From a virus (lineage: Duplodnaviria; Caudoviricetes), in IMG/VR virus record IMGVR_UViG_3300015214_000001, positions 1 to 64,000 of that record: DNA of 64,000 nucleotides; one strand, given 5' to 3'. Shown piece after piece: positions 1 to 48,635 of this stretch (within the stretch, counting starts at the first letter, position 1; each line of letters begins with the position of its first letter). The notes under the pieces are model-generated. The model was not told where the DNA came from and did not search any database. It was given only the letters and a program-made list of their open reading frames with translations. Both the position numbers and the translations under genes were made by a program.

Positions 1-21
1 CCCCCCCCGAATATTTGTCAA
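1..21 (-). promoter_or_regulatory. Poly-G-spacer sigma70 promoter (truncated at window edge)
   Basis: Minus strand TTGACA-AATATTC-G8+, the same motif as complete copies elsewhere. Confidence 0.7.
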
Positions 22-56
22 CAGGTTTTTGTTATGGAATTGTCAAGATAAATAAA

Positions 57-82
57 AACAGCCTATTCATTGATAGGCTGTT
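57..82 (-). terminator. Intrinsic terminator
   Basis: AACAGCCTAT/ATAGGCTGTT stem with T-tail on the minus strand, after gene 110-865. Confidence 0.6.
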
Positions 83-109
83 CTGACTGCAATAGGCTGT
101 TGAAAGATA

Positions 110-865
110 TTACTTGCTTTCCAGATATGCCTTCAACAGGGTATGAACGATCTCTGGAATGTGTGAGCTTGTTCGCCACTGGTTATCGTGCAAAAGGATA
201 CTACCAGCAGTAGCAACACCTAACCCTAGTACATCAAAGGTGAGGTGATAACTATTAAGCCGAATATCGCCACAATCGCGGTATTCAATATGAACAGCGA
301 TTCCATCAGCTAACTGGATAGTCTTATGTTCAAACTTAAGTGGCTGAATGTGATCTTCTAACCACTTCATCAGGCTATCACTTACCGATTGAGTCTGCTT
401 TGTAAGCCACCGCGTATTGGGGATGGGCATTTTGAGCGTATTAGTATCATTGGTCAGACCTTTGAAGAACCTAAAGATCGCTTTACGCGCCTCGAATGAA
501 AAGCGCCACATTTCCGCGCACATCCGCAACACACAGTGTTGACCAGCTTTTAGGGTTGCGTGGAATGGGGTGTAATACTTGTTGTTGTCAAACTGGATAT
601 GAACGGCGATCAATGAGCCATCATCGGCATAATCGGCAGTGGCAACAACAAACGCGCTGTTCTTGCCTAATACTCTAAGCAAGGCAGGTTTGTTCTCACC
701 ATCTTTGACCAAGAATGATTTGTAGCCAAACTCAGCCCACTTACTTTTTAGCACTGGTGCATGACGAATTAGTTCGCCCAATGCTTCAATAGTTTCAGCG
801 CCGATTTGGATGTCTACAAACATCCCTTTTTTCTTTGCCGCGTCCATCATATCGCCGATTGTCAT
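110..865 (-). CDS. Hypothetical protein, paralog of 1355-2116
   Basis: 251 aa ORF; IQIGAETIEALGELIR vs IQVGSKTIEALGELVR, with similarity along the whole length. Confidence 0.85.
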   Translation of the reverse strand: MTIGDMMDAAKKKGMFVDIQIGAETIEALGELIRHAPVLKSKWAEFGYKSFLVKDGENKPALLRVLGKNSAFVVATADYADDGSLIAVHIQFDNNKYYTPFHATLKAGQHCVLRMCAEMWRFSFEARKAIFRFFKGLTNDTNTLKMPIPNTRWLTKQTQSVSDSLMKWLEDHIQPLKFEHKTIQLADGIAVHIEYRDCGDIRLNSYHLTFDVLGLGVATAGSILLHDNQWRTSSHIPEIVHTLLKAYLESK

Positions 866-876
866 AATATTTTCCT

Positions 877-1212
877 TTACAGATCGTCATCTTCTTCAAT
901 GCGTGTCAAGTGTGCAATCTGCTTGATATGAGCAGTAACAACTGTCCCTGCCTTCAATAAGCCCAAAATCCCCATATCATATTGGGTTGTAACATCTAAC
1001 AGCGTCACCCCATGCAAGCCGTTTCTTACTAAACCTTCTTGCACCGTGTAGCCATCACCGCTTTTTGCTGATGAGAAATATTTCTCACAGAAAGCCTGTG
1101 CATCATATTGGTTGTCTACGATGTAATCAACATCAAGTGGGAATTGATTACCCCCCCCATGCTTCTTGATTCGAATGATATACAGTGGATTTACTAATTT
1201 CTTGATAGCCAT
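877..1212 (-). CDS. Hypothetical protein with in-frame G8 tract
   Basis: 111 aa ORF with RBS; G8 encodes GGG at 1151-1158. Confidence 0.75.
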   Translation of the reverse strand: MAIKKLVNPLYIIRIKKHGGGNQFPLDVDYIVDNQYDAQAFCEKYFSSAKSGDGYTVQEGLVRNGLHGVTLLDVTTQYDMGILGLLKAGTVVTAHIKQIAHLTRIEEDDDL

Positions 1213-1242: not shown

Positions 1243-1273
1243 ACTTTAGCATGGGGGGGGGTGAAAACGTCAA
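1243..1273 (-). promoter_or_regulatory. Putative promoter with C9 in spacer
   Basis: TTGACG-19 bp (contains C9)-TAAAGT, upstream of 877-1212. Confidence 0.45.
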
Positions 1274-3849: not shown

Positions 3850-4572
3850 CTAAAGGCTATCTAATTCATCATGTAATTCTGACAATAACCCGCCGTCGCA
3901 TGTCTGGTCATACTCTGTTAATAGGTCTTTGATGCGTCCATCAGGAAACACAGATAGGTATTTAATTGGCATTTGCTCTGCTACAGGGGTGCGCGTAACA
4001 GCATGTACACCCCTTGCTCTATAGCTATCCAATTCATAAGCATAAACAGCTTTAAATAATGGTTGCTGATCTCCTAGCATGAAGTGAAACTCACCATAGA
4101 ACTGATGATGCCATTTAGTGAATTTTTCTAAGTCCAGCAAGTAAGGCCCATATCGTTTGAGTTCTACTTCTTTTGTTGATGATATGGATAAATTTCCTTC
4201 TGTTGCAATTGTGTATTCAGCGTCAAGTCCAATGCAGTGCAGCTGTGAACGGCGACGACCAATATAATGATTTCTATCGCAACGTTTGAGGATGTCAGGA
4301 GAGATAAATCTAGCATCCAATTCTGTCAAGAAGCCATATCTCTTAATCAATGTATCATCAATGAAATTAGGTTGCTTCCAATCAAGGAAGTTAAGTAGGT
4401 CTCGGTTATCCCAGAATACCCCTTCCTCAACTTCATATTTGTGGTGTTGTTGGAATCCACAATATGTATCTACGATCAACCCCACTGGCACATTGATTGT
4501 CTTGCGCTGAACTTCATCTTCATGTAGCACTCTAGTTTCAGGTCTTGCTTCAATCAGTGGTAACGCATTCAT
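3850..4572 (-). CDS. Hypothetical protein, paralog of 14628-15374
   Basis: PVGLIVDTYCG / RYGPYLLDLEKF vs PIGFVVDCYCG / RFGPYLLDTDKF. Confidence 0.85.
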   Translation of the reverse strand: MNALPLIEARPETRVLHEDEVQRKTINVPVGLIVDTYCGFQQHHKYEVEEGVFWDNRDLLNFLDWKQPNFIDDTLIKRYGFLTELDARFISPDILKRCDRNHYIGRRRSQLHCIGLDAEYTIATEGNLSISSTKEVELKRYGPYLLDLEKFTKWHHQFYGEFHFMLGDQQPLFKAVYAYELDSYRARGVHAVTRTPVAEQMPIKYLSVFPDGRIKDLLTEYDQTCDGGLLSELHDELDSL

Positions 4573-4601: not shown

Positions 4602-4628
4602 ATTTTACCCCCCCCGAATGTTTGTCAA
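4602..4628 (-). promoter_or_regulatory. Poly-G-spacer sigma70 promoter
   Basis: TTGACA-AACATTC-G8-TAAAAT (15 bp spacer). Confidence 0.8.
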
Positions 4629-4651: not shown

Positions 4652-4679
4652 TTGACAATTAATGTGGGGGGGGTAATAT
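4652..4679 (+). promoter_or_regulatory. Poly-G-spacer sigma70 promoter (divergent)
   Basis: TTGACA-ATTAATGT-G8-TAATAT (16 bp). Confidence 0.75.
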
Positions 4680-4713
4680 CTGAATATCTATTAAATTGAA
4701 AAGGATAAATACA

Positions 4714-5097
4714 ATGAGTAATGTAATTAAAATTCCCGTTGCCATGCTGATGGATGCGTTTTGTGGGAGAGACTGGGATTATGATATTGAAGCCTTCCGT
4801 TACCCTGATGGTAGACCTTGCGTTCATGCTATGGGTGAGTTGTACAGATTTATCGGCGCGAGAGGGCCTCACCGCGATCACTTCATGTTAGCTTATGCTG
4901 GTCGCTCTGTTTTGTTGCCAGCGATTGAAGCGGGGTTCTTTCCTGGCTCACTCAAGGCTCATAACGTAGCAGAAAGATATATTGAGGCAAGAGATGAATT
5001 TCTACTGTCAATTGGATACCAGCCGACTGACTTAATCGAGATTGAAAATGTTTCTAGGCTTCTTGATCCGAGACACTTTGATCCAAGATTCCTTTAA
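4714..5097 (+). CDS. Hypothetical protein
   Basis: ORF; start moved to the ATG after the AAAGGA RBS. Confidence 0.8.
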   Translation: MSNVIKIPVAMLMDAFCGRDWDYDIEAFRYPDGRPCVHAMGELYRFIGARGPHRDHFMLAYAGRSVLLPAIEAGFFPGSLKAHNVAERYIEARDEFLLSIGYQPTDLIEIENVSRLLDPRHFDPRFL

Positions 5098-5452: not shown

Positions 5453-5875
5453 TTATTGAGTGTCGCTTGTATCGGCACATAATCGTGCTGATAACATTGA
5501 TGCCACAATTTTAGCCTTATTTGGCGCTTGTGGATAACCTGATACTACTTCCCGAATAATACCCAACAAGTCAGGGTGGCAGATATTATCAAGGATATAG
5601 TAAAAGTCGGCATCATTGTCATTAGCATCAATCATAATGCCAAATTCACCAGTTGACAATGGGTTCGCATAAAGCGATAGTCTGCCATCTTTGCGGTAAG
5701 TCACTCCCACCCCTTTGACAAGGTTAACACGCGCCGCATAGGGGTGTTCTTTACCTAAGAAGCGATAACATTCAAGGTGGAAGTTAAATCGCGCTCTCAT
5801 TTCCTTGATCGCATTGCTTTCACAATCGCGCATATACGCAATTATCAACTCAGATAATCTTCTCTGTTCAGCCAT
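5453..5875 (-). CDS. Hypothetical protein
   Basis: 140 aa ORF, coupled to upstream gene. Confidence 0.75.
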   Translation of the reverse strand: MAEQRRLSELIIAYMRDCESNAIKEMRARFNFHLECYRFLGKEHPYAARVNLVKGVGVTYRKDGRLSLYANPLSTGEFGIMIDANDNDADFYYILDNICHPDLLGIIREVVSGYPQAPNKAKIVASMLSARLCADTSDTQ

Positions 5876-6339
5876 TATCCCTCACTTTTGGCAGTTGTCG
5901 AGTAGCTACCATCAACAACGCTAACGGCATAAGATTGATCTTTGTCAATCTCTCTGAAAATCAAAGCGCGTTCGCTGAGTGACTGTGTTACATCTTCATA
6001 CGGAGCAATGTCCATTTCCTTGATGACACGCATATCTTTAACAAGCCACACCTTACCATCGCCCACTAGGTAGGTATGTTCATCCTCAAAGAAAATATAG
6101 CGCACTGGGAACTCAAGGCGTAACGTGGCAACAATACGGCGTTGTGATGGGTTAATCCACTCAACAATCCCGCGCCCAGTTCCGATTAAGTGTTGCCCAT
6201 CGGACTTAAGTAGATCATATGATGTCGATCCACTTGTAATCCATTGATTACCATCAATATCGAATGCGCTGTACACTTGAGTGCGGCCACTTTCATTGAT
6301 GGATACATACGTTGTGTTACCTAATTTAGTGTATAGCAT
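5875..6339 (-). CDS. Hypothetical protein
   Basis: 154 aa ORF with AAGGAG RBS. Confidence 0.8.
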   Translation of the reverse strand: MLYTKLGNTTYVSINESGRTQVYSAFDIDGNQWITSGSTSYDLLKSDGQHLIGTGRGIVEWINPSQRRIVATLRLEFPVRYIFFEDEHTYLVGDGKVWLVKDMRVIKEMDIAPYEDVTQSLSERALIFREIDKDQSYAVSVVDGSYSTTAKSEG

Positions 6340-6367: not shown

Positions 6368-6397
6368 ATTCTACCCCCCCCACGAAAAATGAGTCAA
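6368..6397 (-). promoter_or_regulatory. Poly-G-spacer sigma70 promoter
   Basis: TTGACT-CATTTTTCGT-G8-TAGAAT (18 bp). Confidence 0.8.
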
Positions 6398-10149: not shown

Positions 10150-10689
10150 TTATTTTTCCAACTCCCCGATGTGTTCTTTCGCGCTTGCAATTAACTTACG
10201 CATAACCTTCTCTAACTTCGCGTGATAATCACCTGTGGCTCTCAGGCTATCACTATCAACGTAACTACCTTCTACTGTAACCATCAACTGCGCCACTTGT
10301 CCTACGATTTCAATGTAAATGGCAGCCTCTTTCGATAGCTTAAGCGTACAACTGGCTTTTCCTGTCTGGTTCAGACGCTCATAAACTCTATCAACAATCG
10401 TCTTTTTCTGAGGGGTCACTTCTGTATCAAGCCAATCAGTAAATGATTCGATAACGCACTCTGATAAACCATCAATGTCTAGCTTATTATCCTCACCATC
10501 AAGGATAATATATCTGTCATCAGGGTCATCAGGGAAATTGACATATAGCCGATCATTCCCGTTCGGGTTCTGCCATAGGTTGACATAGAAGGTTAATTCA
10601 CCTTCTTTATGTGGCGCGTGTTGCTTACGTCTTGTCGCTGCCACAGCTTGAAGTTTCTGGATTTGAGCCTTTGATAATTCTAAGTTCAT
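10150..10689 (-). CDS. Hypothetical protein
   Basis: 179 aa ORF with RBS and own promoter. Confidence 0.8.
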   Translation of the reverse strand: MNLELSKAQIQKLQAVAATRRKQHAPHKEGELTFYVNLWQNPNGNDRLYVNFPDDPDDRYIILDGEDNKLDIDGLSECVIESFTDWLDTEVTPQKKTIVDRVYERLNQTGKASCTLKLSKEAAIYIEIVGQVAQLMVTVEGSYVDSDSLRATGDYHAKLEKVMRKLIASAKEHIGELEK

Positions 10690-10722: not shown

Positions 10723-10749
10723 ATTCTACCCCCCCCAGTTATTTGTCAA
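10723..10749 (-). promoter_or_regulatory. Poly-G-spacer sigma70 promoter
   Basis: TTGACA-AATAACT-G8-TAGAAT (15 bp). Confidence 0.8.
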
Positions 10750-10771: not shown

Positions 10772-11241
10772 TTAATCTGTCGAAAAGGTTACAACATCGA
10801 CAATCGGCTCTAAGAAACGCTTGGGCATTGAAAATGCGCCGACGCAACCACCCACACATTTAACCCACCAAGCGTCATCAGTGATGAAATATCTAACAGT
10901 GACAACATCGCCATCACCTATAAATCTAACGCCTCCTGGCACGCTCTTATACCATCCGTTATAACCTTTTTTAATACGGTATTCAGTGGGTTCAGTGCTG
11001 AGAGGGAATTTGTCTTTACCCCAGATAGTATCAACAACGCTGGAGTGTCCTAGTTGACGGGGTTCGTTGCGATCCAGTTCTGAGCTGATGCGTGTAATGA
11101 ACTGGTCAGCATAGCTCTGTGCGTCTTGACGAGTGCGGAAGTCAACGCCGTATTGCGTGTATTCTACCCCCCCCGAATTGCGGATATGGTGCAATTCCAT
11201 GTGCCATCATTTTGTTGCATGTATTTCACTTGTGTTTCCAT
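10772..11241 (-). CDS. Hypothetical protein, frameshifted at G8 tract
   Basis: AAGGAG RBS plus ATG at 11241 (METQVKYMQQ...); G9 at 11167-11174 would restore a 156 aa ORF. Confidence 0.75.
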
Positions 11242-12198: not shown

Positions 12199-12996
12199 TT
12201 ACTCGAATAAGTGGGGCGCTATTGCTTTCATGATCCCCATGGCTTCCTTTTCGAGGTTCTCCACCTCAAATTCAATAGGTGTTTCAATGTCTCTGCAATG
12301 GCGGTTACGCTCTACCACTACGGGGCGTTGCTTGAAGAAGTTTGCTGTTTCTTCACTCGTCAGAAGTGGCAGCGGGATATTTAGGTAATTCCCGCCACTT
12401 GTACGAAGCACTGGGAGATCGTAGTATGCCTCGTGGGGGTATTCCCCGTCTGGATCATTGGTCTCAAGCTCCCACTTCACGCTGCGAGGCGCGTGAGATA
12501 AGATAAAATTAAAAATAAGATTAGGGATACTATATGCTTCAAACCCTTTCAGCTTATCAGCTAGTTTAACTAGCTCTTCAATATAAGAGTGCGGCGTTTC
12601 AATGGCTTCCTTGATAACGACGCAAGTGAGCCGTCCCACATAAGGGATTTCTACTAACTTCTCAACAGTGTGAGCTTCAAATTGCCCCACGGTCTCAATA
12701 CCTGCGCCATGAAGGGCGTTGATCCAACGTGCTTTTGTTTCGGCACTCACAGGCAACACTAGGGTTTCTAGCGGTTGAGCGTCACTTGCTCCCTTCACAA
12801 AAGCACCCGTGAATGTTTCAATGTCGTCATTATCAAATAGATCATACTCTGGATGGTTCTCAACTTCTTGAATTGCAGCAGCTTTTAATATATCAGAAGC
12901 AAAACCCTCTACGCCGCCGACTGCGGCATAGTCACAACCTGAGATTGTAAATGCTGTTTCGATATTTAAGGATTGAGCAACTGTTAAATTAGACAT
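12199..12996 (-). CDS. Protein with RNA polymerase alpha C-terminal-like (HhH) domain
   Basis: RWINALHGAGIETVGQF...LVEIPYVGRLTCVVIKEAI resembles the RpoA-CTD consensus. Confidence 0.65.
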   Translation of the reverse strand: MSNLTVAQSLNIETAFTISGCDYAAVGGVEGFASDILKAAAIQEVENHPEYDLFDNDDIETFTGAFVKGASDAQPLETLVLPVSAETKARWINALHGAGIETVGQFEAHTVEKLVEIPYVGRLTCVVIKEAIETPHSYIEELVKLADKLKGFEAYSIPNLIFNFILSHAPRSVKWELETNDPDGEYPHEAYYDLPVLRTSGGNYLNIPLPLLTSEETANFFKQRPVVVERNRHCRDIETPIEFEVENLEKEAMGIMKAIAPHLFE

Positions 12997-13120
12997 TTTG
13001 CATCTTCTTTCTTTTTGATTGTTGTCGCGGGTTCATCCCGCCTTTAACTTATAAATAAATTGTATAACATTTGGCGATATATTACCCCCCCCAATTTGTA
13101 GGGGTGAAACTATTGCATTC

Positions 13121-13207: not shown

Positions 13208-13591
13208 CTATGATGTACGCGATGTCAATTGATCTTTGGCACGACTTACTGAGGCATTGATGCCCTCACTGTTGGCATTCTGATACAAGCTGATACGGAA
13301 CGCACGGGACATGCACTCAATGTCAGACAGCGGCATATCCTCAGCGCGATAGCCATCTAGTATCCAAAATGCAAGATCAACATTGACCTTGATAATTTCT
13401 TCTTCGGGACACCATGTGCCTTTCATCTCATTGGGTAACATGACTTTAACGTATGATTCGCCAACGCTCGGCGTATAGCGCTCATCCGACATCACTACAC
13501 CGAGCGTTGGAAAGTAATCATCCTGACTTTCTTCCCAAAATCCTACGAACACAACATCACCAGCGGTTACTTTGCTATTCATATTCATCAT
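13208..13591 (-). CDS. Hypothetical protein
   Basis: 127 aa ORF with own promoter. Confidence 0.75.
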   Translation of the reverse strand: MMNMNSKVTAGDVVFVGFWEESQDDYFPTLGVVMSDERYTPSVGESYVKVMLPNEMKGTWCPEEEIIKVNVDLAFWILDGYRAEDMPLSDIECMSRAFRISLYQNANSEGINASVSRAKDQLTSRTS

Positions 13592-13634: not shown

Positions 13635-13662
13635 ATTCTACCCCCCCCCAGTTATTTGTCAA
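13635..13662 (-). promoter_or_regulatory. Poly-G-spacer sigma70 promoter
   Basis: TTGACA-AATAACT-G9-TAGAAT (16 bp). Confidence 0.8.
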
Positions 13663-14627: not shown

Positions 14628-15374
14628 CTAAAAACTAGCTAATCTTTCAGACAGAACAGGCAACAGATCAATATTTCTTGTCTCGTCATATTCTTGCAAA
14701 AGCGCCAGCAGTTCGGAATCTGTAAACACCGATAAACAATCGACTGGCACATCATAGTTAATGGGTATGTCGCCAAGTCCCAAGACCCCAATTGCTTCAT
14801 GACTATTTGCTTGCGCGAAATATACAGCTTTGTGTAATGAGTGATTGCTGTGTGCTAATGGATGCTCATGGCTATTTTGGCGACTGTACCACTCAAAGAA
14901 CTTATCTGTGTCTAAAAGATAAGGGCCAAAACGATCAAGTTCTTTGGTGACATGCTCGAAAACAAGCACACTGCCGTACACTGGGATTAATTCATCTGGT
15001 TTGCCGCCAATTCTGAGTAATTGCTCGTTTCGCTCCTTAATGTAATCTTCTATATTGAGAAGTCCAACTTTAAAACATTCAACCATTGCCGATAGATTGT
15101 CTAAGTCTAATCGGTTTATCAATGGTACTTTTCCTAATACTGCACTTTTATTGATGGGGATTACATCTTCTTCGTCAATAAAAGCAACAAAGGCTCGAAA
15201 ATCCCAATTCGCTGTGCCATCGTAGCCTTCATATTTTTGGTCTATGCTTGTATCCAGTCCGCAATAGCAATCCACAACAAACCCAATAGGCAGATCAACC
15301 CGCTTTGTTACATATTTTGCGTCAATATGAGCATATTTTTCAGGAACAGCCATGATCTTAGGTAAGATATTCAT
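14628..15374 (-). CDS. Hypothetical protein, paralog of 3850-4572
   Basis: Shared motifs; also driven by a poly-G promoter. Confidence 0.85.
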   Translation of the reverse strand: MNILPKIMAVPEKYAHIDAKYVTKRVDLPIGFVVDCYCGLDTSIDQKYEGYDGTANWDFRAFVAFIDEEDVIPINKSAVLGKVPLINRLDLDNLSAMVECFKVGLLNIEDYIKERNEQLLRIGGKPDELIPVYGSVLVFEHVTKELDRFGPYLLDTDKFFEWYSRQNSHEHPLAHSNHSLHKAVYFAQANSHEAIGVLGLGDIPINYDVPVDCLSVFTDSELLALLQEYDETRNIDLLPVLSERLASF

Positions 15375-15407: not shown

Positions 15408-15434
15408 ATTTTACCCCCCCCGAATATTTGTCAA
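15408..15434 (-). promoter_or_regulatory. Poly-G-spacer sigma70 promoter
   Basis: TTGACA-AATATTC-G8-TAAAAT (15 bp). Confidence 0.8.
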
Positions 15435-15523: not shown

Positions 15524-15553
15524 TTGACAGATGATAAATGGGGGGGGTAAAAT
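15524..15553 (+). promoter_or_regulatory. Poly-G-spacer sigma70 promoter
   Basis: TTGACA-GATGATAAAT-G8-TAAAAT (18 bp). Confidence 0.8.
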
Positions 15554-15657: not shown

Positions 15658-16428
15658 ATGAGACAGGATAGCACCATGAAACACAGTAATTGGGTAATGC
15701 GTGAAGCGTTCGGGAAACGCATGTTCGGCAACACTTATACTGGTGAAGTATTCATCACCAATGGAGATGATAAATTATTCAGCGTTATTGAGCCAAAGCC
15801 AAACTTTGATCCCGTCATAGCTATTAGCGTCGATATTGTCTATGACGGAGACAAGCCACAGAGAGAGGACAGTAAGTTCATTGTAATAACAGCCGAAGCC
15901 ACATCCATTATTGACCTCAGTGGGTGGATCGAAAAACGGTTTATTAATGAGCAAAACGTTGATGTTTTGGTAGATAGGCTAAACAGAAGGCTAATTCTAG
16001 GTAACACAGGATTCAGACAAGAAGGCAATGGGAACACCGTTATAGGTGACTATAGTAAATCTATTAAATTGCCGCTTGAAGAAAAATTACAGCATGATGC
16101 TGGACTAAGCAAAGGAATGGCAAGGGCTATTCTCAATGCTGATAACCACGATGATGAACAAGATAAAGCATTTTTGTGGAAAGAATTTAATATCCATCTA
16201 CCAGAAGATGATGCGATTGTCTTTGTGGTACACGTTCGCTCTAAAGATCAATTCTACTTAGCTTGTGGTATAACGTCAAACGATAACCCTGTACATGGTC
16301 TCAAATTGCCTGATATGCCGATTGCAGTGCAGCATGAAGGCGCTGGATTAATTAAAGTATTCTTCGATAATGGGGGAAGTCGAGACTATTATGTCTCAGG
16401 TGGATATATTCTAGGCAAGACAGTATAA
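15658..16428 (+). CDS. Hypothetical protein
   Basis: 256 aa ORF (start may be the second ATG). Confidence 0.8.
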   Translation: MRQDSTMKHSNWVMREAFGKRMFGNTYTGEVFITNGDDKLFSVIEPKPNFDPVIAISVDIVYDGDKPQREDSKFIVITAEATSIIDLSGWIEKRFINEQNVDVLVDRLNRRLILGNTGFRQEGNGNTVIGDYSKSIKLPLEEKLQHDAGLSKGMARAILNADNHDDEQDKAFLWKEFNIHLPEDDAIVFVVHVRSKDQFYLACGITSNDNPVHGLKLPDMPIAVQHEGAGLIKVFFDNGGSRDYYVSGGYILGKTV

Positions 16429-16867: not shown

Positions 16868-17596
16868 TTGCTAATATATAATAGAGTAATCACTGAACCA
16901 TTAATTTACTGTTGCCAGCGCCTAAGCGTTAGAAAGTGTTTTACTGTGAGCATTAACGATCACTTCATGCCAACACCTAAGAGAGTACCTAGCTTGCCGA
17001 TTAATCAATCAATCAAAACGGTTAATGTAGACACATCTCATGCGATTTTGATTGATAAATATAATACCCCCCCCAGTACGATATTGACACGGGTTATTCA
17101 AAATACCAACAAGCTAAAATCATATGGCGCGTACCATATAGCTAACCGCATATTTATCACATTAGCATCCAACTACTACACGCTGTCTAATCATGGTCTG
17201 ATAGTAGGGTATGAGTACAGCGCGGGCCATCAAATCAAGCGGCGATATGATTTACTGCCTCAACTATTGATGTCACGGTTTATACGACCATTTCATGATT
17301 CGTCGGCGCTATACAAATCACGCAATGAACATCACTGGCATTATGACCTGGTATTGTTAAGCTGCAATAATCAAATAATCAACATCCCGCGTCCAAAACT
17401 TCACCCTGCATTAGTCGGCGCTCTACTGATGACTATTATCAATAAGCCCGATCAATGGATTGAAAAATGGTCACATGAACGTAAAATTACCCCTAGCCCT
17501 GATCGGCAACTTATTGATGATCTATATGAGAACATTAAGCATGATCTGAATGATCTCAATATCCATCTATGCGCCTATGCAGTATCAGGCATATGA
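16868..17596 (+). CDS. Hypothetical protein (start uncertain)
   Basis: 242 aa ORF with in-frame C8; true start probably downstream. Confidence 0.55.
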   Translation: MLIYNRVITEPLIYCCQRLSVRKCFTVSINDHFMPTPKRVPSLPINQSIKTVNVDTSHAILIDKYNTPPSTILTRVIQNTNKLKSYGAYHIANRIFITLASNYYTLSNHGLIVGYEYSAGHQIKRRYDLLPQLLMSRFIRPFHDSSALYKSRNEHHWHYDLVLLSCNNQIINIPRPKLHPALVGALLMTIINKPDQWIEKWSHERKITPSPDRQLIDDLYENIKHDLNDLNIHLCAYAVSGI

Positions 17597-21867: not shown

Positions 21868-21907
21868 TACAAATCAATAACGATAATATATGGAAACGGT
21901 TCTGTAG

Positions 21908-22507: not shown

Positions 22508-22570
22508 GATATTTCCCTTTATCTTGATTATTTAATGTCTGTTGATATTGATATTGCTTACTGTCTGACC

Positions 22571-26290: not shown

Positions 26291-26386
26291 ATTGGCTTAT
26301 TCTTTCTTTATAGGCAGTATGTAACTAGGTTTTTACCTATTATGCGTCATTTAGTTACATACTACCACTGCTGTTTTAATTTGTCA

Positions 26387-28384: not shown

Positions 28385-28397
28385 TTCAATCTCTCCT

Positions 28398-29222: not shown

Positions 29223-29225
29223 TTT

Positions 29226-30071: not shown

Positions 30072-30104
30072 AATTATTGCCTTTCCTACTCAGATTATTT
30101 GTAA

Positions 30105-30767
30105 CTATCGAACAGACCATTCAGAGCCGACTTGCAATCTTGATGTAATAGGCGCTAAATCGTTTACAGGGGTAAAAATATAAGCCGATTCACCAACGCC
30201 TAACTTCCATACATCATCATAGATTGTGCCATAGTCGTAGTAATTGTCATCGACTTCAAAGCACAGCATTTTGTTTCTTTTAGAACCAAGCACAACATCA
30301 CAATAAGTACCATCGCCAAACCATAAGCCATATAGACGTAGAGTGTCACCTGTTTCTAATTGCATAAGAAACTCATATAGCGATGATAGATATTCTTCAC
30401 GCAGATCATATTTATGAATTTTAGCGCGTTCTGTGCGCTTCAATGGTAAGTAGGTTTTCGCCTTAAACCTACGCGGGATAAAGTAAGCACCTAAAAGACC
30501 TGGTACTTTTCGATCAATCTTGAGGTAATAGTAATTCAAAATTTCCCTGTGGATTGACGGAAGCAATGGGTTTAAGGCGTTCTGGTAATTTTCCTTAGAC
30601 AGCTCCCACGCACGATGAGTATCTGCGTCATATGGCAATTCCTCATCATGAAAAGTAGCTCCCGCTTCCACCATCGCTTTATAAAATGGATATACGGCGG
30701 GGTGCAAGTCTGGGTTGCCGATCAAAATATATTGTTTGTCGCTCATATGTATCCTTTCTTTGCACAT
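30105..30767 (-). CDS. Hypothetical protein
   Basis: 220 aa ORF (start probably MSDK). Confidence 0.8.
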   Translation of the reverse strand: MCKERIHMSDKQYILIGNPDLHPAVYPFYKAMVEAGATFHDEELPYDADTHRAWELSKENYQNALNPLLPSIHREILNYYYLKIDRKVPGLLGAYFIPRRFKAKTYLPLKRTERAKIHKYDLREEYLSSLYEFLMQLETGDTLRLYGLWFGDGTYCDVVLGSKRNKMLCFEVDDNYYDYGTIYDDVWKLGVGESAYIFTPVNDLAPITSRLQVGSEWSVR

Positions 30768-30782: not shown

Positions 30783-30810
30783 ATTCTACCCCCCCCATTT
30801 CTATTGTCAA
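30783..30810 (-). promoter_or_regulatory. Poly-G-spacer sigma70 promoter
   Basis: TTGACA-ATAGAAAT-G8-TAGAAT (16 bp). Confidence 0.8.
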
Positions 30811-30906: not shown

Positions 30907-30933
30907 TTGACAAATAATCGGGGGGGGTAGAAT
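30907..30933 (+). promoter_or_regulatory. Poly-G-spacer sigma70 promoter
   Basis: TTGACA-AATAATC-G8-TAGAAT (15 bp). Confidence 0.8.
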
Positions 30934-30974: not shown

Positions 30975-31286
30975 ATGAATAAAGATATGAGCAAGTTATA
31001 TATCTTGAAAGCGCAATTAACCACGATCTTACCAATGGCATTTGATTTTGCTGGTGGTGAATTTCAATTAGATGGATATTTCATCGTCCAGCAAGAGCCA
31101 TTAGAACGCCAGTTCTTTGAGCATGTATATAATGGCATGTGTGCGAGTATTGGTGATGGCTCATCAGAAGGCAATCAATATCTTATCAGTGAAGTGTTTG
31201 AAGCAATCGGCGCTAAGATCATTCCTGATTTTTCCAGTGGATACCCCAGTTACATCGTTCGTCCTAAATCAATTGAAATTACTTAA
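30975..31286 (+). CDS. Hypothetical protein
   Basis: 103 aa ORF. Confidence 0.75.
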   Translation: MNKDMSKLYILKAQLTTILPMAFDFAGGEFQLDGYFIVQQEPLERQFFEHVYNGMCASIGDGSSEGNQYLISEVFEAIGAKIIPDFSSGYPSYIVRPKSIEIT

Positions 31287-31308: not shown

Positions 31309-31335
31309 TTGACAAATAATCGGGGGGGGTAGAAT
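31309..31335 (+). promoter_or_regulatory. Poly-G-spacer sigma70 promoter
   Basis: TTGACA-AATAATC-G8-TAGAAT (15 bp). Confidence 0.8.
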
Positions 31336-31396: not shown

Positions 31397-31804
31397 ATGA
31401 ATAAGATCGTCAGCTTAACCCGTCATCCGTTGAACATTGACCAAATTAACTTGTTGAAACAATTATTTGGTGATGGTGTCGAAGTAGAAACAAAATCAGT
31501 ATTCTTTAGTGATGCTGAACATTTCACATCACTGGTTGAGGGGCAAACAGTGGCGGCAGTTGTGCCTGCTCATCTGCTCATGAAGGCGATGGTTGGCGGT
31601 GTCAACACCCGCATCATTACATGGGTAGCTGATGAAGAAGCACGTAAGCGGAATAATTTCGCGTGTCGTGGATTGTCAGTCTTTGAACTTGAGAACGGCA
31701 TGGTTGTTGCATCTCAAGACCTTGAAACTCAACCAACAGTTGAGAACTCTTTCAAGGATAATCAAGAGTTCCCATACGGTGGCGAGCCAGACACAGACAA
31801 CTAA
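31397..31804 (+). CDS. Hypothetical protein, possibly Csx15/Csx16-like small Rossmann fold
   Basis: IVSLTRHPL..Q..L and TVAAVVPAHL motifs; function tentative. Confidence 0.45.
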   Translation: MNKIVSLTRHPLNIDQINLLKQLFGDGVEVETKSVFFSDAEHFTSLVEGQTVAAVVPAHLLMKAMVGGVNTRIITWVADEEARKRNNFACRGLSVFELENGMVVASQDLETQPTVENSFKDNQEFPYGGEPDTDN

Positions 31805-31882
31805 TTCATAATGCAAATAACCCACATCGGCAAAATTTTGATGTGGGTTATTTGTTAATTTAATCAATAAGGATAATCCAAC

Positions 31883-32419
31883 ATGAAGATCAATACCATT
31901 GTGGTAGGGAAATATGCGGTAAATCTTTCACCAGAGTTTAACCTCGTAGAACAAGTTAATGTGGAATTTTCTACAGATATTCAAGAATGTGATGAACAAC
32001 TTCTGAGCATTTTATCTGACGCTCACGCTAAAGACGCATGTGTCTTATTCCAATACATCCCATCTATATTAGGGATGACGTTAATGCGTCATGCTTACTC
32101 AATTGGCAAAAATGTCGGTAGTTGTTATCCAGAGGCAGAACCACCGACATCAAAAGTGCCAATTGGGGTTCTTGTAACTCCGCACATGCCATTAGAAGTG
32201 AAAGAAGAAATTTACACACCATATTACAGCAATGAAGCTGCACGATTAGTAGATGCAGTCAAGTTTGCTAACCCACGCGCTGATGTGAATTGGTTAGATC
32301 ATGGACACATCAAAGTTCGCGTAGAAGGGCAAAGTATTTTTCATGTTAATGAGATTAAGGTGGAAAATGTTGAGTGGTTTGGACTGCCAAAGCAATTATT
32401 AGCGACTAGAAACGATTAG
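31883..32419 (+). CDS. Hypothetical protein
   Basis: 178 aa ORF with RBS. Confidence 0.8.
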   Translation: MKINTIVVGKYAVNLSPEFNLVEQVNVEFSTDIQECDEQLLSILSDAHAKDACVLFQYIPSILGMTLMRHAYSIGKNVGSCYPEAEPPTSKVPIGVLVTPHMPLEVKEEIYTPYYSNEAARLVDAVKFANPRADVNWLDHGHIKVRVEGQSIFHVNEIKVENVEWFGLPKQLLATRND

Positions 32420-32434
32420 GGAGAAGAAGCAATT

Positions 32435-32665
32435 ATGGAACAAGCACAAGAAAATAAAATGATAGAAACCATTATTCAATACGGCTTCTACGATTGGTAT
32501 AGCACTGGGTTTTTATCGCCACTATGGGAAGATTTCCGTAAACTCAATAAAGATGGAACGCATAAAGATGAGGGTTTTTTGCGGGAGATCGCGCAATATA
32601 TTAAATCACACTCAGCCAAATTTCCTGAGCTAAACGATGCGCTTAGCAAACTCCCGAATTTATAA
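32435..32665 (+). CDS. Hypothetical protein
   Basis: 76 aa ORF. Confidence 0.7.
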   Translation: MEQAQENKMIETIIQYGFYDWYSTGFLSPLWEDFRKLNKDGTHKDEGFLREIAQYIKSHSAKFPELNDALSKLPNL

Positions 32666-32677
32666 GGCAAAAAAATA

Positions 32678-33286
32678 ATGAAAGTATTTACCATTAAAGA
32701 CAACTCAGTGACAGATGGAGCGCAAGTGTCATCTGTCACTATCAAAGGCGCTGGTGTTACTGTTCCAGCGATTATCATTGGTGAAGAAGGGCGAGGTCGT
32801 AGCCAAGGCGTACTGCCAGTGGCTTATGCTAGTAAGCAAGAACAAGCAGAAGAAAACAAAAGACTGCTTTTTGCCAATGTGGGTCAATCACGTAGTGGGA
32901 AGCCAAAGTTGTTTGAATTACAACATGCTGATAGCCATGAGCAGTGCATCGTGGTATTTAGAACAACAATCGGATTTCGTGGCGGGAATAGCCATACTGG
33001 TGATGTCGCAAAAATTGAAGAATATGAACAGTATGGTGAAACTAAGAAAAGATACACATTTGCTGCGTTTCCTGGTAGCATCATTGTCAGAGGTGAGATC
33101 GCTCAAGGTGGCGCGGGACGAATGGGAAGCGGTTCTCAATTTGTTGCAATTATGCCAAAAGGTATTTGGTTTCGCGTAGCACGCAGTGGGCGGCTCTATG
33201 GCGCACACCCATCCCACTATTTTATGTTTGATGGTGAAAAGATCATCGGCGGTCTCACTTGGGACGAACGCTCACTGTTGGACTAA
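32678..33286 (+). CDS. Hypothetical Gly-rich protein
   Basis: 202 aa; GEEGRGR, GFRGG, GxIAQGxAGRMGSG motifs. Confidence 0.8.
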   Translation: MKVFTIKDNSVTDGAQVSSVTIKGAGVTVPAIIIGEEGRGRSQGVLPVAYASKQEQAEENKRLLFANVGQSRSGKPKLFELQHADSHEQCIVVFRTTIGFRGGNSHTGDVAKIEEYEQYGETKKRYTFAAFPGSIIVRGEIAQGGAGRMGSGSQFVAIMPKGIWFRVARSGRLYGAHPSHYFMFDGEKIIGGLTWDERSLLD

Positions 33287-33409: not shown

Positions 33410-33437
33410 TTGACAAATATTCGGGGGGGGGTAGAAT
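33410..33437 (+). promoter_or_regulatory. Poly-G-spacer sigma70 promoter
   Basis: TTGACA-AATATTC-G9-TAGAAT (16 bp). Confidence 0.8.
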
Positions 33438-33491: not shown

Positions 33492-33743
33492 TTGATGGGA
33501 ACTTACTATAATCCACCCGATGATTTACCAAAGCTAGAGGGAGTCCGCAAGATTGAGGGTGATGGCTATGAATCATTAGTCACTCAACTTGGTGAGGATG
33601 AGTTGTTGTTTGGACTATATGATCGTGTGTTCTTTAAGAACGCGGTTCACTTATATTCAGAAGGTGAATACAATGAGTTTGAGCGACAAGGGTTAGTTCG
33701 ACTAGGCTTTTATGCCGTCCCTTCTAAACACATCGCGCGTTAA
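33492..33743 (+). CDS. Hypothetical protein
   Basis: 83 aa ORF, AAGGAG RBS. Confidence 0.8.
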   Translation: MMGTYYNPPDDLPKLEGVRKIEGDGYESLVTQLGEDELLFGLYDRVFFKNAVHLYSEGEYNEFERQGLVRLGFYAVPSKHIAR

Positions 33744-33866: not shown

Positions 33867-34257
33867 CTAAAACTTTTTACCATCTGGCTTCTTGCGGTTT
33901 TCCATGTTGTGATCGGCACGCTGTTTGTTATATGCTAGTTTTTCATCCAATGCGCCGCCAATATCTAGTTTCATATATCCAGCAAGATCAAGAATTCTAA
34001 TGATGGCATCGGCTAATTCCACCTCAATCATTAGACGGTTCTTTAGATGGTCATCCATTAATCCTTTACGATAGCCTTCGGTAGCCTCAGCAATTTCTGT
34101 GACTATCAGCATCATCTTCTCTACGACATTGACAATGGAGGGTTCTCCTGTAGTTAGATCAGTGTACCAACCACGCTCAACATTGGCTTCATGTATCTCC
34201 GTTGCTAACGCATTAAGGGTGGCGGGGGGGGGTAATACCAGCGTCTTTTATCTGCAT
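33867..34257 (-). CDS. MazG-like all-alpha NTP pyrophosphohydrolase, frameshifted at C9 tract
   Basis: EIAEATEG and EVELADAIIRILDLAG motifs; C8 at 34224-34232 would join the ATG at 34257 (AGGAG RBS) to give 129 aa. Confidence 0.8.
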
Positions 34258-35741: not shown

Positions 35742-36116
35742 TTATCTCCACTGGTCATAGTCATAGCATTGGAATTTAGATGGTTGCGGGGACTTACACA
35801 ACACAGACCAAGCCTGATTTGAGATTACATCCATAACAATGTAAATGAAGTAATCTGGCTTATCAAATCCCCCTGATTGCCAAATGCGATCCATTACCAC
35901 AAATTCACCTTCTGCTCCTGCTACATATGTTTGAATAAACTGAATTGCTACTTCGTCTTTTTGTTCCTGCCCTAAAGCCGAGAAGATATTGGACACGAAT
36001 ACAAAAAGGATGAAAGTAACAAAAAGAAATATCGCAATGGTAAGAAAACGCTCAAACGACTTTCCATCACCTGCACCACTTAACGAGGTATTACTAAACC
36101 TTTGCTCTGCCATCAT
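35742..36116 (-). CDS. Membrane-anchored hypothetical protein
   Basis: Hydrophobic helix FLTIAIFLFVTFILFVFV; weak similarity to 38603-39028. Confidence 0.75.
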   Translation of the reverse strand: MMAEQRFSNTSLSGAGDGKSFERFLTIAIFLFVTFILFVFVSNIFSALGQEQKDEVAIQFIQTYVAGAEGEFVVMDRIWQSGGFDKPDYFIYIVMDVISNQAWSVLCKSPQPSKFQCYDYDQWR

Positions 36117-36152: not shown

Positions 36153-36181
36153 ATTTTACCCCCCCCCGAATAACTTGTCAA
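36153..36181 (-). promoter_or_regulatory. Poly-G-spacer sigma70 promoter
   Basis: TTGACA-AGTTATTC-G9-TAAAAT (17 bp). Confidence 0.8.
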
Positions 36182-37526: not shown

Positions 37527-38593
37527 CTAATCCACATTCATGGCAAAGTATAAGGATTTCAGCGAATCCTCATCAACTTCTTTATCCTCTGATACTTCTT
37601 CGCCTTCCCAAAACAAAGTATTTCGATATTCATTTAATGCAGACAAAGTAGAGCCTATATCTCTAAACTGTTCATGCTTAGTTTCATTCATGCAAATTGC
37701 GACTCGCATCATCTTAAATAGCTCGTAATTAGGCACTAAATACCCCTTTGCTTGGTATTTCAACAAACGTTTCATACCACCAATTGGGCAATGAACAATC
37801 CGAACGTTAGCTACCTTTTGAGCAAAATCAGGGAAGAACCCATCATCAACTACTGCATTATCTAAGTCGATTAGCGCTGCGCGACAAACTGTTAGGTCAA
37901 ATGAATTAATGATTTCTTCTGGTGGGCCATATGTCTGACCATTCGCTAATTGACGCGGAACAATAAGTTGTAATACTGGCGCATCTTGACTGCTTTCAGG
38001 TGTTGGGTAAAATGTTTTGACGATTTCATTGTTAAGCGAGGCGCTATCTATCACATACTCAACTTCTCCCCCCCCAAGTTAAATGCAGAAGATAATATCG
38101 CATCATAAATACCATCAAATTGTTCCGCATCACGACAGAATATATCAATATCCTTCCGTTTGGGGTTATCTGCAATGATGTGACGTGTCCCGCTTGAATA
38201 AGTGTCAGGTGCAATCATCCAAGCGACAAACCCTCCCGCGAAAATTGCACCCAGTGGGGTTAATCGTTGATAAATAGATGAAAGAAATTCTTTACCCCGA
38301 ATAACAGGTGTGATTTCAAAGCTAAAAATACCCGACAGATCATCATCTGATGTCCGATCAGTAAATGAATGAAACTTGTTTTGGTATCCCGAGTAATATG
38401 GCACAACAACATCGGATTGTGAGTGCTTAAACATTTTTTCAACCGCTTTACCATCATCATCATACATCCTGATCGTAAAACTCTTATCATCAATCGCAAC
38501 AATCACGCACTTGCGATTATCATCATGTGCTTTTACTACTTGCCCTAAGAAAATACTACCTACTCGTTTTTCTGAGCGATAAATATCAGTCAT
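37527..38593 (-). CDS. Phage nucleotidyltransferase-like protein, frameshifted at G8 tract
   Basis: AGGF...KDIDIF in the 5' ORF and LQLI...SFDLTVC...RLLKYQAKGY in the 3' ORF; G9 at 38068-38075 fuses them (355 aa). Confidence 0.7.
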
Positions 38594-41291: not shown

Positions 41292-41996
41292 TCATTCGGT
41301 CAAGAGTGATTTACCTGCGCTCATCGTCTCCAGTGGGTATGGATATGTCTCAACCCAGTTGCTACTAATTCCACGCACGCCTGTAACTTCAAGTTCATCA
41401 GCCCGACTATCCATGCCTCGGGCGCGATATTCTTGCACAATTGCTTCGATCACTCTGTAAATATTGATATACGCCGACGCATTATCAGGTTTTTCGTAAG
41501 TCACCGTTTTAAGTAAATCATCATCATAACCACCAACACCAAGTAACACAATGAAAGTGCTTACTCGATTGGCATTGATGAACGTTGTTAGATACAACGT
41601 TTCTAATAATGGTTCGTCAATGCCGTAGCCAATATAATATTTTGACGTGTTTCCATCACGCATAACAACAGGGATGTTGCTCATATAAATTGCGTTAGGA
41701 TCAGGGATGATTTCTTCATCGTTATGAGGGTTTTCATCTACAGGGATTAATTGGAGTTGCTGAGAATACTCATTAACACCACGATTGAAGCAGACAATGA
41801 TTTTTTGAATATCATCATCATCAAACTCAAGGAGGCCCTTTTCCACTAACACCTGACGAACTTTCGTTTCAATGCGGTCAGTATACATATGGGGCGTATT
41901 GTTGAATTCACCTGCGTAAGCATAACCGATATTTCGGAATTCTGCAAGTAAGTTTAGCAAATTCGTTGGTGTATAGGGGTTATTATCGTTGGACAT
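41292..41996 (-). CDS. Hypothetical protein
   Basis: 234 aa ORF, AAGGAG RBS, own promoter. Confidence 0.8.
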   Translation of the reverse strand: MSNDNNPYTPTNLLNLLAEFRNIGYAYAGEFNNTPHMYTDRIETKVRQVLVEKGLLEFDDDDIQKIIVCFNRGVNEYSQQLQLIPVDENPHNDEEIIPDPNAIYMSNIPVVMRDGNTSKYYIGYGIDEPLLETLYLTTFINANRVSTFIVLLGVGGYDDDLLKTVTYEKPDNASAYINIYRVIEAIVQEYRARGMDSRADELEVTGVRGISSNWVETYPYPLETMSAGKSLLTE

Positions 41997-42037: not shown

Positions 42038-42067
42038 ATTCTACCCCCCCCACAATGAATCTGTCAA
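42038..42067 (-). promoter_or_regulatory. Poly-G-spacer sigma70 promoter
   Basis: TTGACA-GATTCATTGT-G8-TAGAAT (18 bp). Confidence 0.8.
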
Positions 42068-46218: not shown

Positions 46219-46242
46219 ATAATCCCTTTCTTGTTTATTTGT

Positions 46243-47396
46243 TTAAAAACGTGGAGTTCCACGTTTTTCTATCTCGCGCTCCCATATATGTAAGGGGCGT
46301 TTCTTGCCATCTTTAACAGCGATCAATTGAAACCCTAAGCTATTAAAAAATTGATTAGCTTGCTCATTGTTGTAAACACAAGTCGCACGCTTAGGAGATG
46401 CTGGCAATGATGCTATTAACCCACTGCCAACCCTATTGCCCATCATTTGTGCTTTCTGATCTACTGCGATTTCATAGATTGTTATCCAACCATCGCGTCG
46501 CAAGTGGAAACGACAAAAACCTACAACACTGCCATTATGTTCAGCTACGATTAATTCTTTTTTCGCAATACTATCACGTAGCGATGGATAACGCAAGTAT
46601 CCGATTGCATCTGGATGCTGATTAGCAATCTGCTTAATGGCAACTATATCACTCTCTACGCCCCACCTAATGCCAGCAACAGTTCTATTCCAGTAAGATT
46701 TCCAATTCATTACGGATAATTCAAAACAAAAGTAAGGCACATCGTTATGAATGTCAGAAAATTTACTTTCACTCAAAAGTGGAAAGTGCCGATTAACGTA
46801 ACCTGAATAGTTACCACTATTGCCACAGAAAAATCCACATGGGTAATTTGCCATTTTTTGAATAAAATTTCCATCCAGACTTACAACATTTTCTATCATA
46901 TGGAATAACTTCATTTGTCTTTGGGGTGATCCACCCAATAAATGCGTAGGCCTAGCGCCAAACTCTTTAGGATTAACTGATGTGCCTTTAGCATATTGAG
47001 TATTACCGCCAGTAGCTACCGAATAAGCTAACCTAATCGGCTTTCCGTTAATGCTATCGGGGATTCGATCAATAATACCCTTCACCTTAGGGATAATTAA
47101 TACTGCTTCTGATACGAGCTTAGATATAACATCAGCCCATTGCATAACCTCATCAAATTGTTCTTCTCGTTCTAAATCTTTGACTGTGGCTAACCTTAAA
47201 TTATGTTCAGAAACAGCATTGGCGTATTGCTCCAATGTCAAGTTGGGGTTATTCCAGTCTTGATCTGCAAATTCTATAGGGTGATGGTTGTTAAGTGGCA
47301 ATTGTGATCCATAGGTTAATCCGTGTCGGATCGCTATCTCAGCAAAGCGCTGATTATTTCCAGCGCAATAAATTATTTCGGGGGGGGTAGAGCCAT
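46243..47396 (-). CDS. DUF6610-like TIM-barrel fused to GNAT acetyltransferase, frameshifted at C8 tract
   Basis: HLLGGSP..Q and SLDGN motifs; C-terminal IYEIAV...G.G...N..AN.FF..LGF; C9 at 47380-47387 restores MALPPPEIIYCAGNN (384 aa). Confidence 0.7.
46245..46268. repeat. 24-bp palindrome, copy 8
   Basis: AAAAACGTGGAGTTCCACGTTTTT overlapping the last codons (KRGTPRF) of the GNAT fusion. Confidence 0.95.
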
Positions 47397-47484
47397 GTTC
47401 TTCTATCCTTATAAATAAACCTTAAAAGCCACACAAGTAACTAGAGTGGCTTTTAAGGTCACAAAATACTACAAGAAGGTCTGG

Positions 47485-48567
47485 TTATTCGTTGGCGAAC
47501 GTGTTAATTTCTCGTAACTTTGTCAGTATAGGCTCATCAGAAACGAAATCATCATCTACATTAACATAATCATTCCAAGAGATACCTAGCGCCTTCGAGA
47601 CCTCTTTAGCCATATATGATTTGGCGCATTTTTGACAATACCCTACGCGGGTTTCCTTATTCCAAGAGAATGCTGGATTCGTGTTGTCATGAGCATGATT
47701 GCCAAATGGACAAACTGTTAATTCAGAGAAGCCTCTATTATCAAAGTTGCTAACTCCCAACTTATCTATGATTAGATCATAATAGTCGTTATAAGTATTT
47801 TCGGACAGGCTAATTTCACCTGCGGTTTGTTCTTGAACTATTGACGATTCCTGAACAAGTAAGGCAATTTGATTTGCCAGTTCTTCAAGGTCGATTGGAT
47901 CATATTTAATTGTCCAATACCCACCAGCAGGAGCGCTATAGCTATGGCGCTCTACATATTTCCAATATATTTCTTCCGCGTTATCACTTGTCTTGTAAAC
48001 TTTTGATAAGGCAAGATCAACTTCTTCATATTGCCAATCCCAATCTTCTTTGATGGTGTCAGGATTAACAACACATCCTAACACCTTACCATCAGTGAAC
48101 GCTACGCGAACCTCTAATGCGTAGTGGGTTCTTCCAGTCTGGGAGCGACGAAACAAATATACTGTATCATCTGGACTGATGACAAATTGTTCGTCATGTG
48201 TTCCCATCTCGTCTTGCCAATAAGTAGGCAGATTGTGTAAGACAAAAAGGTTCTTGCGACGATAAAGACCACTCGGTCTTGAAGCATATAGCCATGGTTC
48301 ACCCTGGCTATTTAATGATACCAACACGCGCTCTTTGCGACGAGTATCATCGAATTCTGTAACCCACAGTTCTTCTTCTCCATTATGAGTAGCAGCCACA
48401 ATGGATACCTGATTGTGGAGAAACCAACGATCATGGCTGTTATCATCTGCTCTTAACTTGGATGTTTTTCCTGCTTCGGTGATGATATTATGCAGCTTCT
48501 TTGCAACTGCATAACGATTGTTATGGTTGCTATCTGTCAATTGGCTCACTAAATGTTTGATGTCCAT
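47485..48567 (-). CDS. Hypothetical protein with C-terminal CHC2-like zinc finger
   Basis: CPF..HAHD..PAFSW....YCQKC resembles the primase zinc-binding domain. Confidence 0.65.
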   Translation of the reverse strand: MDIKHLVSQLTDSNHNNRYAVAKKLHNIITEAGKTSKLRADDNSHDRWFLHNQVSIVAATHNGEEELWVTEFDDTRRKERVLVSLNSQGEPWLYASRPSGLYRRKNLFVLHNLPTYWQDEMGTHDEQFVISPDDTVYLFRRSQTGRTHYALEVRVAFTDGKVLGCVVNPDTIKEDWDWQYEEVDLALSKVYKTSDNAEEIYWKYVERHSYSAPAGGYWTIKYDPIDLEELANQIALLVQESSIVQEQTAGEISLSENTYNDYYDLIIDKLGVSNFDNRGFSELTVCPFGNHAHDNTNPAFSWNKETRVGYCQKCAKSYMAKEVSKALGISWNDYVNVDDDFVSDEPILTKLREINTFANE

Positions 48568-48605
48568 CAGGTTTTCCTTGTGTTTTTAATTAACTTTATA
48601 GTCTA

Positions 48606-48635
48606 ATTCTACCCCCCCCACATCGGGATCGTCAA
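48606..48635 (-). promoter_or_regulatory. Poly-G-spacer sigma70 promoter
   Basis: TTGACG-ATCCCGATGT-G8-TAGAAT (18 bp); leader similar to that at 42010-42043. Confidence 0.8.

Follow-up and report, generated by a model that had tools for sequence, protein, structure and literature searches.

Homopolymeric G tracts in the spacers of early-type phage promoters: candidates for transcription tuned by slippage

The first 64 kb (the window) of a 208,458-bp tailed-phage genome (Duplodnaviria; Caudoviricetes; IMG/VR record IMGVR_UViG_3300015214_000001) contains a family of sigma70-type promoters in which a homopolymer of guanines occupies part of the spacer between the -35 and -10 hexamers. Such a G7-G9 run lies within the spacer of 18 promoters in the genome, 16 of them in the window, and these belong to a larger set of 41 tracts of the form Y-G7-11-TA (where Y is a pyrimidine), the other 23 being found in coding or other contexts. 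In our estimate there is slightly better than an even chance that these are early promoters used by the host RNA polymerase (RNAP), that their output can be tuned by slippage of the tract, and that they form one part of a genome-wide poly-G set.

The architecture of these promoters is highly uniform. All 16 window sites proposed in a first-pass annotation of the sequence were recovered in place, and its tally of their spacers was reproduced (15 bp in five, 16 bp in four, 17 bp in one, 18 bp in four and 19 bp in one). The common layout is TTGAC(A/T/G), then 7, 8 or 10 mixed bases, then G7-9 and TA(A/G)AAT, with the tract filling the -10-proximal half of the spacer. The -35 hexamer is a perfect TTGACA in 14 of the 18 promoters and has one mismatch in the others, while the -10 is TAGAAT or TAAAAT in 15, the remainder reading TAATAT, TGAAAA (TAAAGT on the other strand) and AGAATA. 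When the whole genome was searched for perfect TTGACA and TAnAAT hexamers placed 14-20 bp apart, 15 of the 17 sites contained a tract. Genome-wide, the spacers measure 15 bp (six), 16 bp (six), 17 bp (one), 18 bp (four) and 19 bp (one, the site at 1243 being read on the minus strand); about one third fall outside 16-18 bp, and only a single promoter of the 18 has the optimal 17-bp spacer. The extended -10 feature is absent, position -15 being G in all tract promoters, with no TG before the -10. A ribosome-binding site and a start codon on the same strand follow at 25-60 nt, several of the promoters stand directly behind a terminator, and all 18 are confined to one contiguous, early-type region, rich in ORFans, that extends from 202 kb across the circular junction to 48.6 kb. 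When 1-20 kb was scanned generically for promoters at low stringency, sites were not enriched (71 versus 61 in shuffles), and we therefore place weight only on consensus-grade sites.

Long G/C runs are greatly over-represented in this genome, which has a G+C content of 39.5%. We counted 38 runs of at least eight, compared with a mean of 0.77 and a maximum of 2 in first-order Markov simulations of the unique genome. The 23 such runs previously reported for the window proved exact (C8 x13, C9 x2, G8 x5, G9 x3), and 20 of them read G8-9-TA, as had been said of most; the window has no G/C run of length 7 and two of length 6. Over the whole genome the combined G and C histogram (length 5, 51 runs; 6, 10; 7, 3; 8, 29; 9, 9; 11, 1) has a separate peak at 8, which argues that the long tracts are a distinct population and not the tail of ordinary runs. 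The tracts also share their flanks: among the 41, a pyrimidine precedes the run in 40 (an A in the remaining one), T follows in 38 and TA in 33, and of the 23 that lie outside promoters 17 continue with TAG or TAA directly past the run. A general property of G runs was ruled out as the source of this bias, since runs of G3-G6 lack it, the frequency of a following TA after G3-G5 being 0.11-0.16.

The mechanism that we favour would operate as follows. The early promoters would be read by host RNAP carrying its primary sigma factor; searches of the phage for sigma region 2, a T7-type RNA polymerase and a beta subunit found none (that for the T7 type having no positive control), and the phage therefore probably depends on the host polymerase. 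Slippage of G8-9 during replication would leave a fraction of each burst with a promoter one base longer or shorter, and this change would move the transcription unit toward or away from the optimal hexamer spacing. Each of the approximately 18 early units could then behave as a heritable, reversible dimmer, set independently of the others, with a default dim state that is one slip from bright, as would fit the rarity of 17-bp spacers. The expected effect of a single base pair is borrowed from established promoter biology, namely porA, in which one G more or less in the -35/-10 spacer brings a significant change in transcription (PMC3899988).

Evidence on tract length in the phage itself comes from the ends of the record and from coding tracts. 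The contig begins with exactly C8 and its flank, and the other end (208335-208343) reads A-C9 and flank; the 123-bp terminal overlap indicates a circular assembly and points to a short-read de Bruijn assembler. Judging from the behaviour of such assemblers, a cut within a promoter tract is the break expected where a mixture of C8 and C9 reads creates a branch in the graph, and a cut placed at random would hit any tract with a probability of approximately 0.0015. Coding members of the family lie at junctions between open reading frames (ORFs) in different frames at 69395, 114638, 116431, 123532 and 175402; this hallmark of coding-frame contingency is thus found among other tracts of the genome and not among the 16-18 promoter tracts, which are non-coding. 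Most tracts well within long ORFs are in frame at their called length.

The same design is found in other genomes, where its length varies. Scanning IMG/VR with TTGACA-N7-10-G8-TAnAAT returned eight contigs, compared with none for the C8 version and two with the tract against the -35. Three of the eight represent related phages with diverged flanking genes, which have kept one promoter with tracts of G8, G8 and G10. Among bacteria the pattern occurs in at least 120 contigs, mostly metagenome-assembled genomes (MAGs) of Clostridia and Treponema. A narrower pattern gave at least 117 metagenome contigs, in which promoters with flanks at least 95% identical were treated as orthologous families; among the matches listed, tract length differs between contigs in nine of the ten largest families, one comprising G8 x9, G9 x20 and G10 x6 and another spanning G9-G14. 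The genes downstream of these metagenome promoters encode lipoproteins or proteins with signal peptides. The largest variable family was considered as a phage promoter and rejected: the genes under its control, for a secreted protein and an M16 peptidase, lie beside a terminase gene, and the promoter is probably bacterial, adjoining a prophage. In a 1.1-Mb Clostridia MAG (Ca. Caccopulliclostridium gallistercoris), 13 cassettes precede members of a paralogous family of secreted proteins. These cassettes read TTGACAAAAATGC-G8-12-TA(A/G)AAT, and in most of them the tract is followed by a hairpin whose stem sequence varies by copy while its pairing is kept.

Bacterial spacers, among the matches listed and with the range restricted to 15-18 bp, number 27 at 15 bp, 41 at 16, 19 at 17 and 42 at 18; in 401 Clostridia genomes, with no restriction on length, the distribution is 15 bp, 2; 16, 9; 17, 3; 18, 9; 19, 8; 20, 2; and 21, 4. 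This fits an arrangement in which consensus G-tract promoters sit one step from 17 bp, dim by default and with bright minority variants; alternatively, spacers containing a G tract could have an optimum other than 17 bp. As judged from sequence comparison, TTGACA-N-poly-G-TAnAAT is a widespread, length-polymorphic and strand-specific type of predicted promoter that serves bacterial contingency genes. At the phage's own promoters length variation would follow by analogy with the variation observed for this design elsewhere. The phase variation suggested by the first-pass annotation is supported in part, through promoters of sigma70/sigmaA type before early units, tracts of slippage-prone length, a design that varies in other genomes, an assembly break within a tract and coding tracts at frame breaks; the adaptive value as bet-hedging that it attached to them is speculative.

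Several observations weigh against a tract that acts purely by its length. A length-tuner needs neither strand polarity, fixed position nor particular flanks, yet 17 of the 18 promoters have their G run on the non-template strand, five bacterial genomes with approximately 30 G-tract promoters contain no C-tract version, the tract abuts the -10 throughout the canonical promoters, and the Y...TA flanks are common to promoter and coding tracts. Nor is there compensation between the two parts of the spacer: a non-tract portion of N7 is combined with G8 (five) or G9 (three) for a total of 15-16 bp, N8 with G7 (one), G8 (three) or G9 (one) for 15-17 bp, and N10 with G8 (four) for 18 bp. Since the tract stays at 8-9 irrespective of the remaining spacer, its length does not appear tuned to the total. 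Five promoters have 15-bp spacers and would be nearly off, an odd state for early genes unless these are dispensable. Finally, both known assemblies of the phage predict identical proteins across three coding tracts in the window. Given the constancy of position, strand and flanks, the tract probably also acts in a sequence-specific way beside the -10.

These features lead to the first of the competing explanations, which we regard as possible but distinctly less probable than tuning by slippage: the promoters may constitute a fixed module, in which a non-template G-run against the -10 serves as a positive or structural element and changes in its length are incidental noise. The module might be read by host sigma region 3, by the beta-prime zipper or by an early phage protein, and would act somewhat as an extended -10 does, allowing a promoter to tolerate spacers of 15-18 bp. 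An earlier suggestion that the G-tract is a recognition element gains from its position, polarity, non-compensating length and shared flanks, and survives to that extent. Placement against the TA of the -10, the non-template bias and a narrow length independent of the remaining spacer are what such a module predicts, as are the Y-G8-TA signature missing from G3-G6 runs, the IMG/VR matches (eight against the -10, two against the -35 and none with C8), and the occurrence of G8-9 with a -10-like hexamer lacking any -35 shortly before genes or within the first part of ORFs (11167, 13085, 175402, 181761). However, the missing T at -15 excludes a classical TGn extended -10, and the near-perfect conservation of the -35 suggests that spacing should matter. 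Moreover, about half of the genomes from other bacterial lineages carry the tract elsewhere in the spacer, and the design, whose length differs from one sample to the next, controls lipoprotein families of the classic phase-variable kind. A fixed module also leaves the frame breaks at coding tracts unexplained, and sits poorly with distant phage relatives that have no tracts at all. The two accounts can both be partly true.

Two further explanations appear to us doubtful, and to a similar degree. According to the first, a phage or host factor would recognize G8TA sites as a programmed, genome-wide network, whether for co-regulation, for pausing or for targeted slippage and indels; this idea is prompted by the signature (Y-G8-9-TA), polarity and narrow length range that the 41 tracts have in common. 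We also considered the idea that a single-subunit RNA polymerase of the phage starts transcription at the tract, and rejected it, given a conserved -10, a varying distance to TTGACA and no such polymerase found in a search (T7 type) that had no positive control. The second supposes a neutral by-product, in which one promoter cassette with a G-run spread by duplication or recombination and is tolerated without having a role. Many of the promoters are indeed paralogous, with TTGACAAATAWTC before the tract, TAGAAT(G/A)AG after it and 70-80% identity around it, and the same region contains ten copies of a terminator palindrome. Against such an origin, the three spacer classes (N7, N8 and N10) are of unrelated sequence, 23 more tracts with the same flanks occur in unrelated coding or other contexts, and neutral runs of G8-9 should decay or drift, yet their lengths hold at 8-9.

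Least probable is that the tracts are real but their lengths misread, for instance with 17 bp as the true spacer throughout and 8-9 as a ceiling of base calling: although the contig breaks at a tract, homopolymers are error-prone and caution with such tracts in short-read drafts has been urged (PMC4577077), no one correction brings N7, N8 and N10 all to 17 bp, the genome contains a G11, most tracts deep inside long ORFs are in frame as called, the assembly appears to derive from short reads, and three proteins that span or flank tracts in the window are recorded from two contigs (JGI/IMG, and ENA/Logan at 208,473 bp, by exact-protein look-up). This agreement argues against gross miscalling and has no bearing on minor alleles; taken with the assembly type and the in-frame coding tracts, it makes the caveat about base calling raised in the first-pass annotation unlikely to matter. 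Tailing or library artefacts were rejected as the origin of the tracts, which reads could not then span and which are mostly in frame within long ORFs.

The individual promoters of the window, and the genes that they are placed to drive, can be summarized by spacer class. With N7-G8 and a 15-bp spacer, 4602..4628 (-), TTGACA-N7-G8-TAAAAT, precedes 3850..4572 and downstream genes as far as a terminator at 1316-1343, its ATG lying 29 nt past the -10; 10723..10749 (-), TTGACA-N7-G8-TAGAAT, drives 10150..10689; 15408..15434 (-), TTGACA-N7-G8-TAAAAT, drives 14628..15374; and 30907..30933 (+) and 31309..31335 (+), both TTGACA-N7-G8-TAGAAT, drive 30975..31286 and 31397..33286, respectively, the former with CTTAAC repeats upstream. 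Spacers of 16 bp are found at 13635..13662 (-) and 33410..33437 (+), both TTGACA-N7-G9-TAGAAT, before 13208..13591 and 33492..33743; at 4652..4679 (+), TTGACA-N8-G8-TAATAT, which is divergent and drives 4696..5097; and at 30783..30810 (-), TTGACA-N8-G8-TAGAAT, which lies behind a terminator palindrome (30815-30838) and heads an operon of approximately 10 kb, 30767..21034. The sole 17-bp spacer belongs to 36153..36181 (-), TTGACA-N8-G9-TAAAAT, upstream of 35742..36116 and further genes. The N10 class, with 18 bp, comprises 6368..6397 (-), TTGACT-N10-G8-TAGAAT, behind the terminator palindrome 6420-6443 and before 5875..6339 and downstream genes; 15524..15553 (+), TTGACA-N10-G8-TAAAAT, divergent, driving 15658..16428; 42038..42067 (-), TTGACA-N10-G8-TAGAAT, before 41292..41996 and downstream genes; and 48606..48635 (-), TTGACG-N10-G8-TAGAAT, before 47485..48567 and downstream genes.

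Two sites of the earlier list require qualification. That at 1..21 (-) is a promoter but was incomplete as listed: the start of the window truncates it to a -35 TTGACA (21..16), N7 and the first eight tract bases, and the full copy across the circular junction reads TTGACA-N7-G9-TAAAAT, with a 16-bp spacer and a -10 at approximately 208329-208334. The one at 1243..1273 (-) exists as well, but fits the family poorly. It reads TTGACG-N6-C9-N4-TAAAGT with a 19-bp spacer and drives 877..1212 (-), so that C is on the non-template strand, the tract is in mid-spacer and the -10 is weak; on the plus strand the same site reads TTGACT-N7-G9-TGAAAA, but no gene follows. Two weak candidates may be added. 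At 13079..13108 (-), TTCACC-N10-G8-TAATAT has an 18-bp spacer and a -35 that matches at only four of six positions; it lies 82 nt upstream of 12199..12996 and directly behind a terminator palindrome (13121-13144). At 17061..17090 (-), GTGTCA-N10-G8-TATTAT is antisense to the ORF 16868..17596 (+), whose reading frame is kept across the tract.

The other five tracts of the window (1151, 11167, 34224, 38068 and 47380) are outside -35/-10 spacers. A G8-TA at 1151..1158 (-) is within the ORF 877..1212 and in frame at G8, and G8-TAGAAT at 11167..11174 (-), lacking a -35, covers approximately codons 9-12 of the ORF 10772..11200. The G9-TA at 34224..34232 (+) falls between two minus-strand genes, where it presents C9 in the 5' leader region of 33867..34115, with no canonical spacer. 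At 38068..38075 (-), G8 followed by AGAAG serves 37527..38054 as its ribosome-binding stretch and falls close to the end of 38051..38593; a G9 here would join the two into a protein of 358 amino acids. Lastly, 47380..47387 (+) is a G8-TAG in the gap between the minus-strand genes 47485..48567 and 46243..47301, with no promoter spacer.

Two other repeated elements accompany these promoters. A palindromic element resembling a bidirectional terminator, AAAAACGTGGAAnTCCACGTTTTT, has ten copies in the window (0 expected), at 6420-6443, 13121-13144, 15468-15491, 17664-17687, 24435-24458, 30815-30838, 35712-35735, 46245-46268, 58148-58171 and 62567-62590, and four of these copies immediately precede a G-tract promoter. 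CTTAAC(A) forms direct repeats, approximately 11 bp apart, at a distance of 25-60 nt before the -35 at 30907, 31309, 33410, 42067, 48635 and 21, and TTAAC occurs 10 times in the 70 nt upstream versus 2 expected; the repeats are a possible regulator or UP-like site for a sub-family of promoters.

The short ORFs of the first 48 kb gave no Pfam or PHROG match, and replication genes begin past approximately 59 kb with a RecJ-like exonuclease and a clamp. A DnaE-type DNA polymerase of 1109 amino acids is encoded at 96255-99584 (+) (phrog_405, E 7e-302), and this replicase of the phage's own may be relevant to the rate of slippage. Behind the candidate promoter at 13079-13108, the ORF 12199-12996 (-), of 265 amino acids, has a sub-threshold match to the C-terminal domain of the RNA polymerase alpha subunit (E 0.0013, 18.8 bits versus a cut-off of 23.8 bits) and may be a helix-hairpin-helix DNA binder.

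Close relatives of the phage were not encountered: megablast against INPHARED gave no match, scans seeded with its proteins, run on IMG/VR and on metagenomes to find another copy or a close relative, returned nothing related, and a pattern scan of IMG/VR for copies of this phage's promoters gave 0 matches. In a distant relative with a RecJ-like protein 28% identical there is one G8, at the end of the contig (where it reads C8), and faecal phage contigs with DNA polymerases 36-39% identical have no G/C run of seven or more. The absence of tracts from distant relatives suggests that the system is recent and lineage-specific. The DNA polymerase on an 18.5-kb contig binned in a Phycisphaerae MAG (JAUVVQ010000043.1) shares 40-47% identity with that of the phage, and a single promoter there reads TTGACA-N8-G9-TACAAT; the contig is probably a piece of a phage, distantly related to the present one, that was assigned to the wrong bin.

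Bacterial pathogens are the textbook users of phase-variable promoters, and where phages have slippery tracts these have to date been linked to frameshifts in coding sequence, chiefly in genes for receptor binding. If the proposed tuning is correct, virions would differ heritably in which host-takeover or anti-defence units are switched on, amounting to viral bet-hedging at the level of transcription. Indel heterogeneity can be measured at phage homopolymers, and poly-G tracts are on record for Fletchervirus (10.1101/2025.10.21.683753); the same source, summarizing Sorensen et al. 2021 and data on T2 and T4, presents diversification of progeny as proposed for the poly-G tracts of Campylobacter Fletchervirus and for contingency loci of T-even phages, and its main text does not mention promoters. 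The present genome resembles these phages in having slippery homopolymers, including coding tracts at frame breaks, and differs in that the tracts considered here lie in -35/-10 spacers and would act on transcription. Our literature search found no case of a phage promoter tract and no description of the Clostridia G-tract cassettes. The extended -10 (TGn) offers a different parallel, being likewise an extra element directly upstream of the -10 with G at -14, whereas the phage promoters have no T at -15, carry a homopolymer of 8-9 nt and retain a consensus -35.

Among bacterial systems, porA, opc and fetA of Neisseria meningitidis similarly carry poly-G/C within the spacer of a sigma70-type promoter, giving intermediate, dimmer-like states in addition to on and off. 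Neisseria promoter tracts occur in both G and C orientations. Those systems control single genes for bacterial surface proteins, unlike the approximately 18 virus promoters before early genes described here, where the tract adjoins the -10 and nearly always presents G on the non-template strand. The cassettes of gut bacteria, uncultured Clostridia among them, TTGACAAA(A/T)...-G8-12-TA(A/G/T)AAT, have a near-identical layout and paralogous copies within a genome; they occur in G orientation only, with 17-bp spacers under-represented and lengths that vary between samples, but drive families of lipoproteins and signal-peptide proteins, where the phage version drives early ORFans. The proposed mechanism is thus of the porA/opc/fetA type, and the closest match in sequence is to the cassettes of gut Clostridia.

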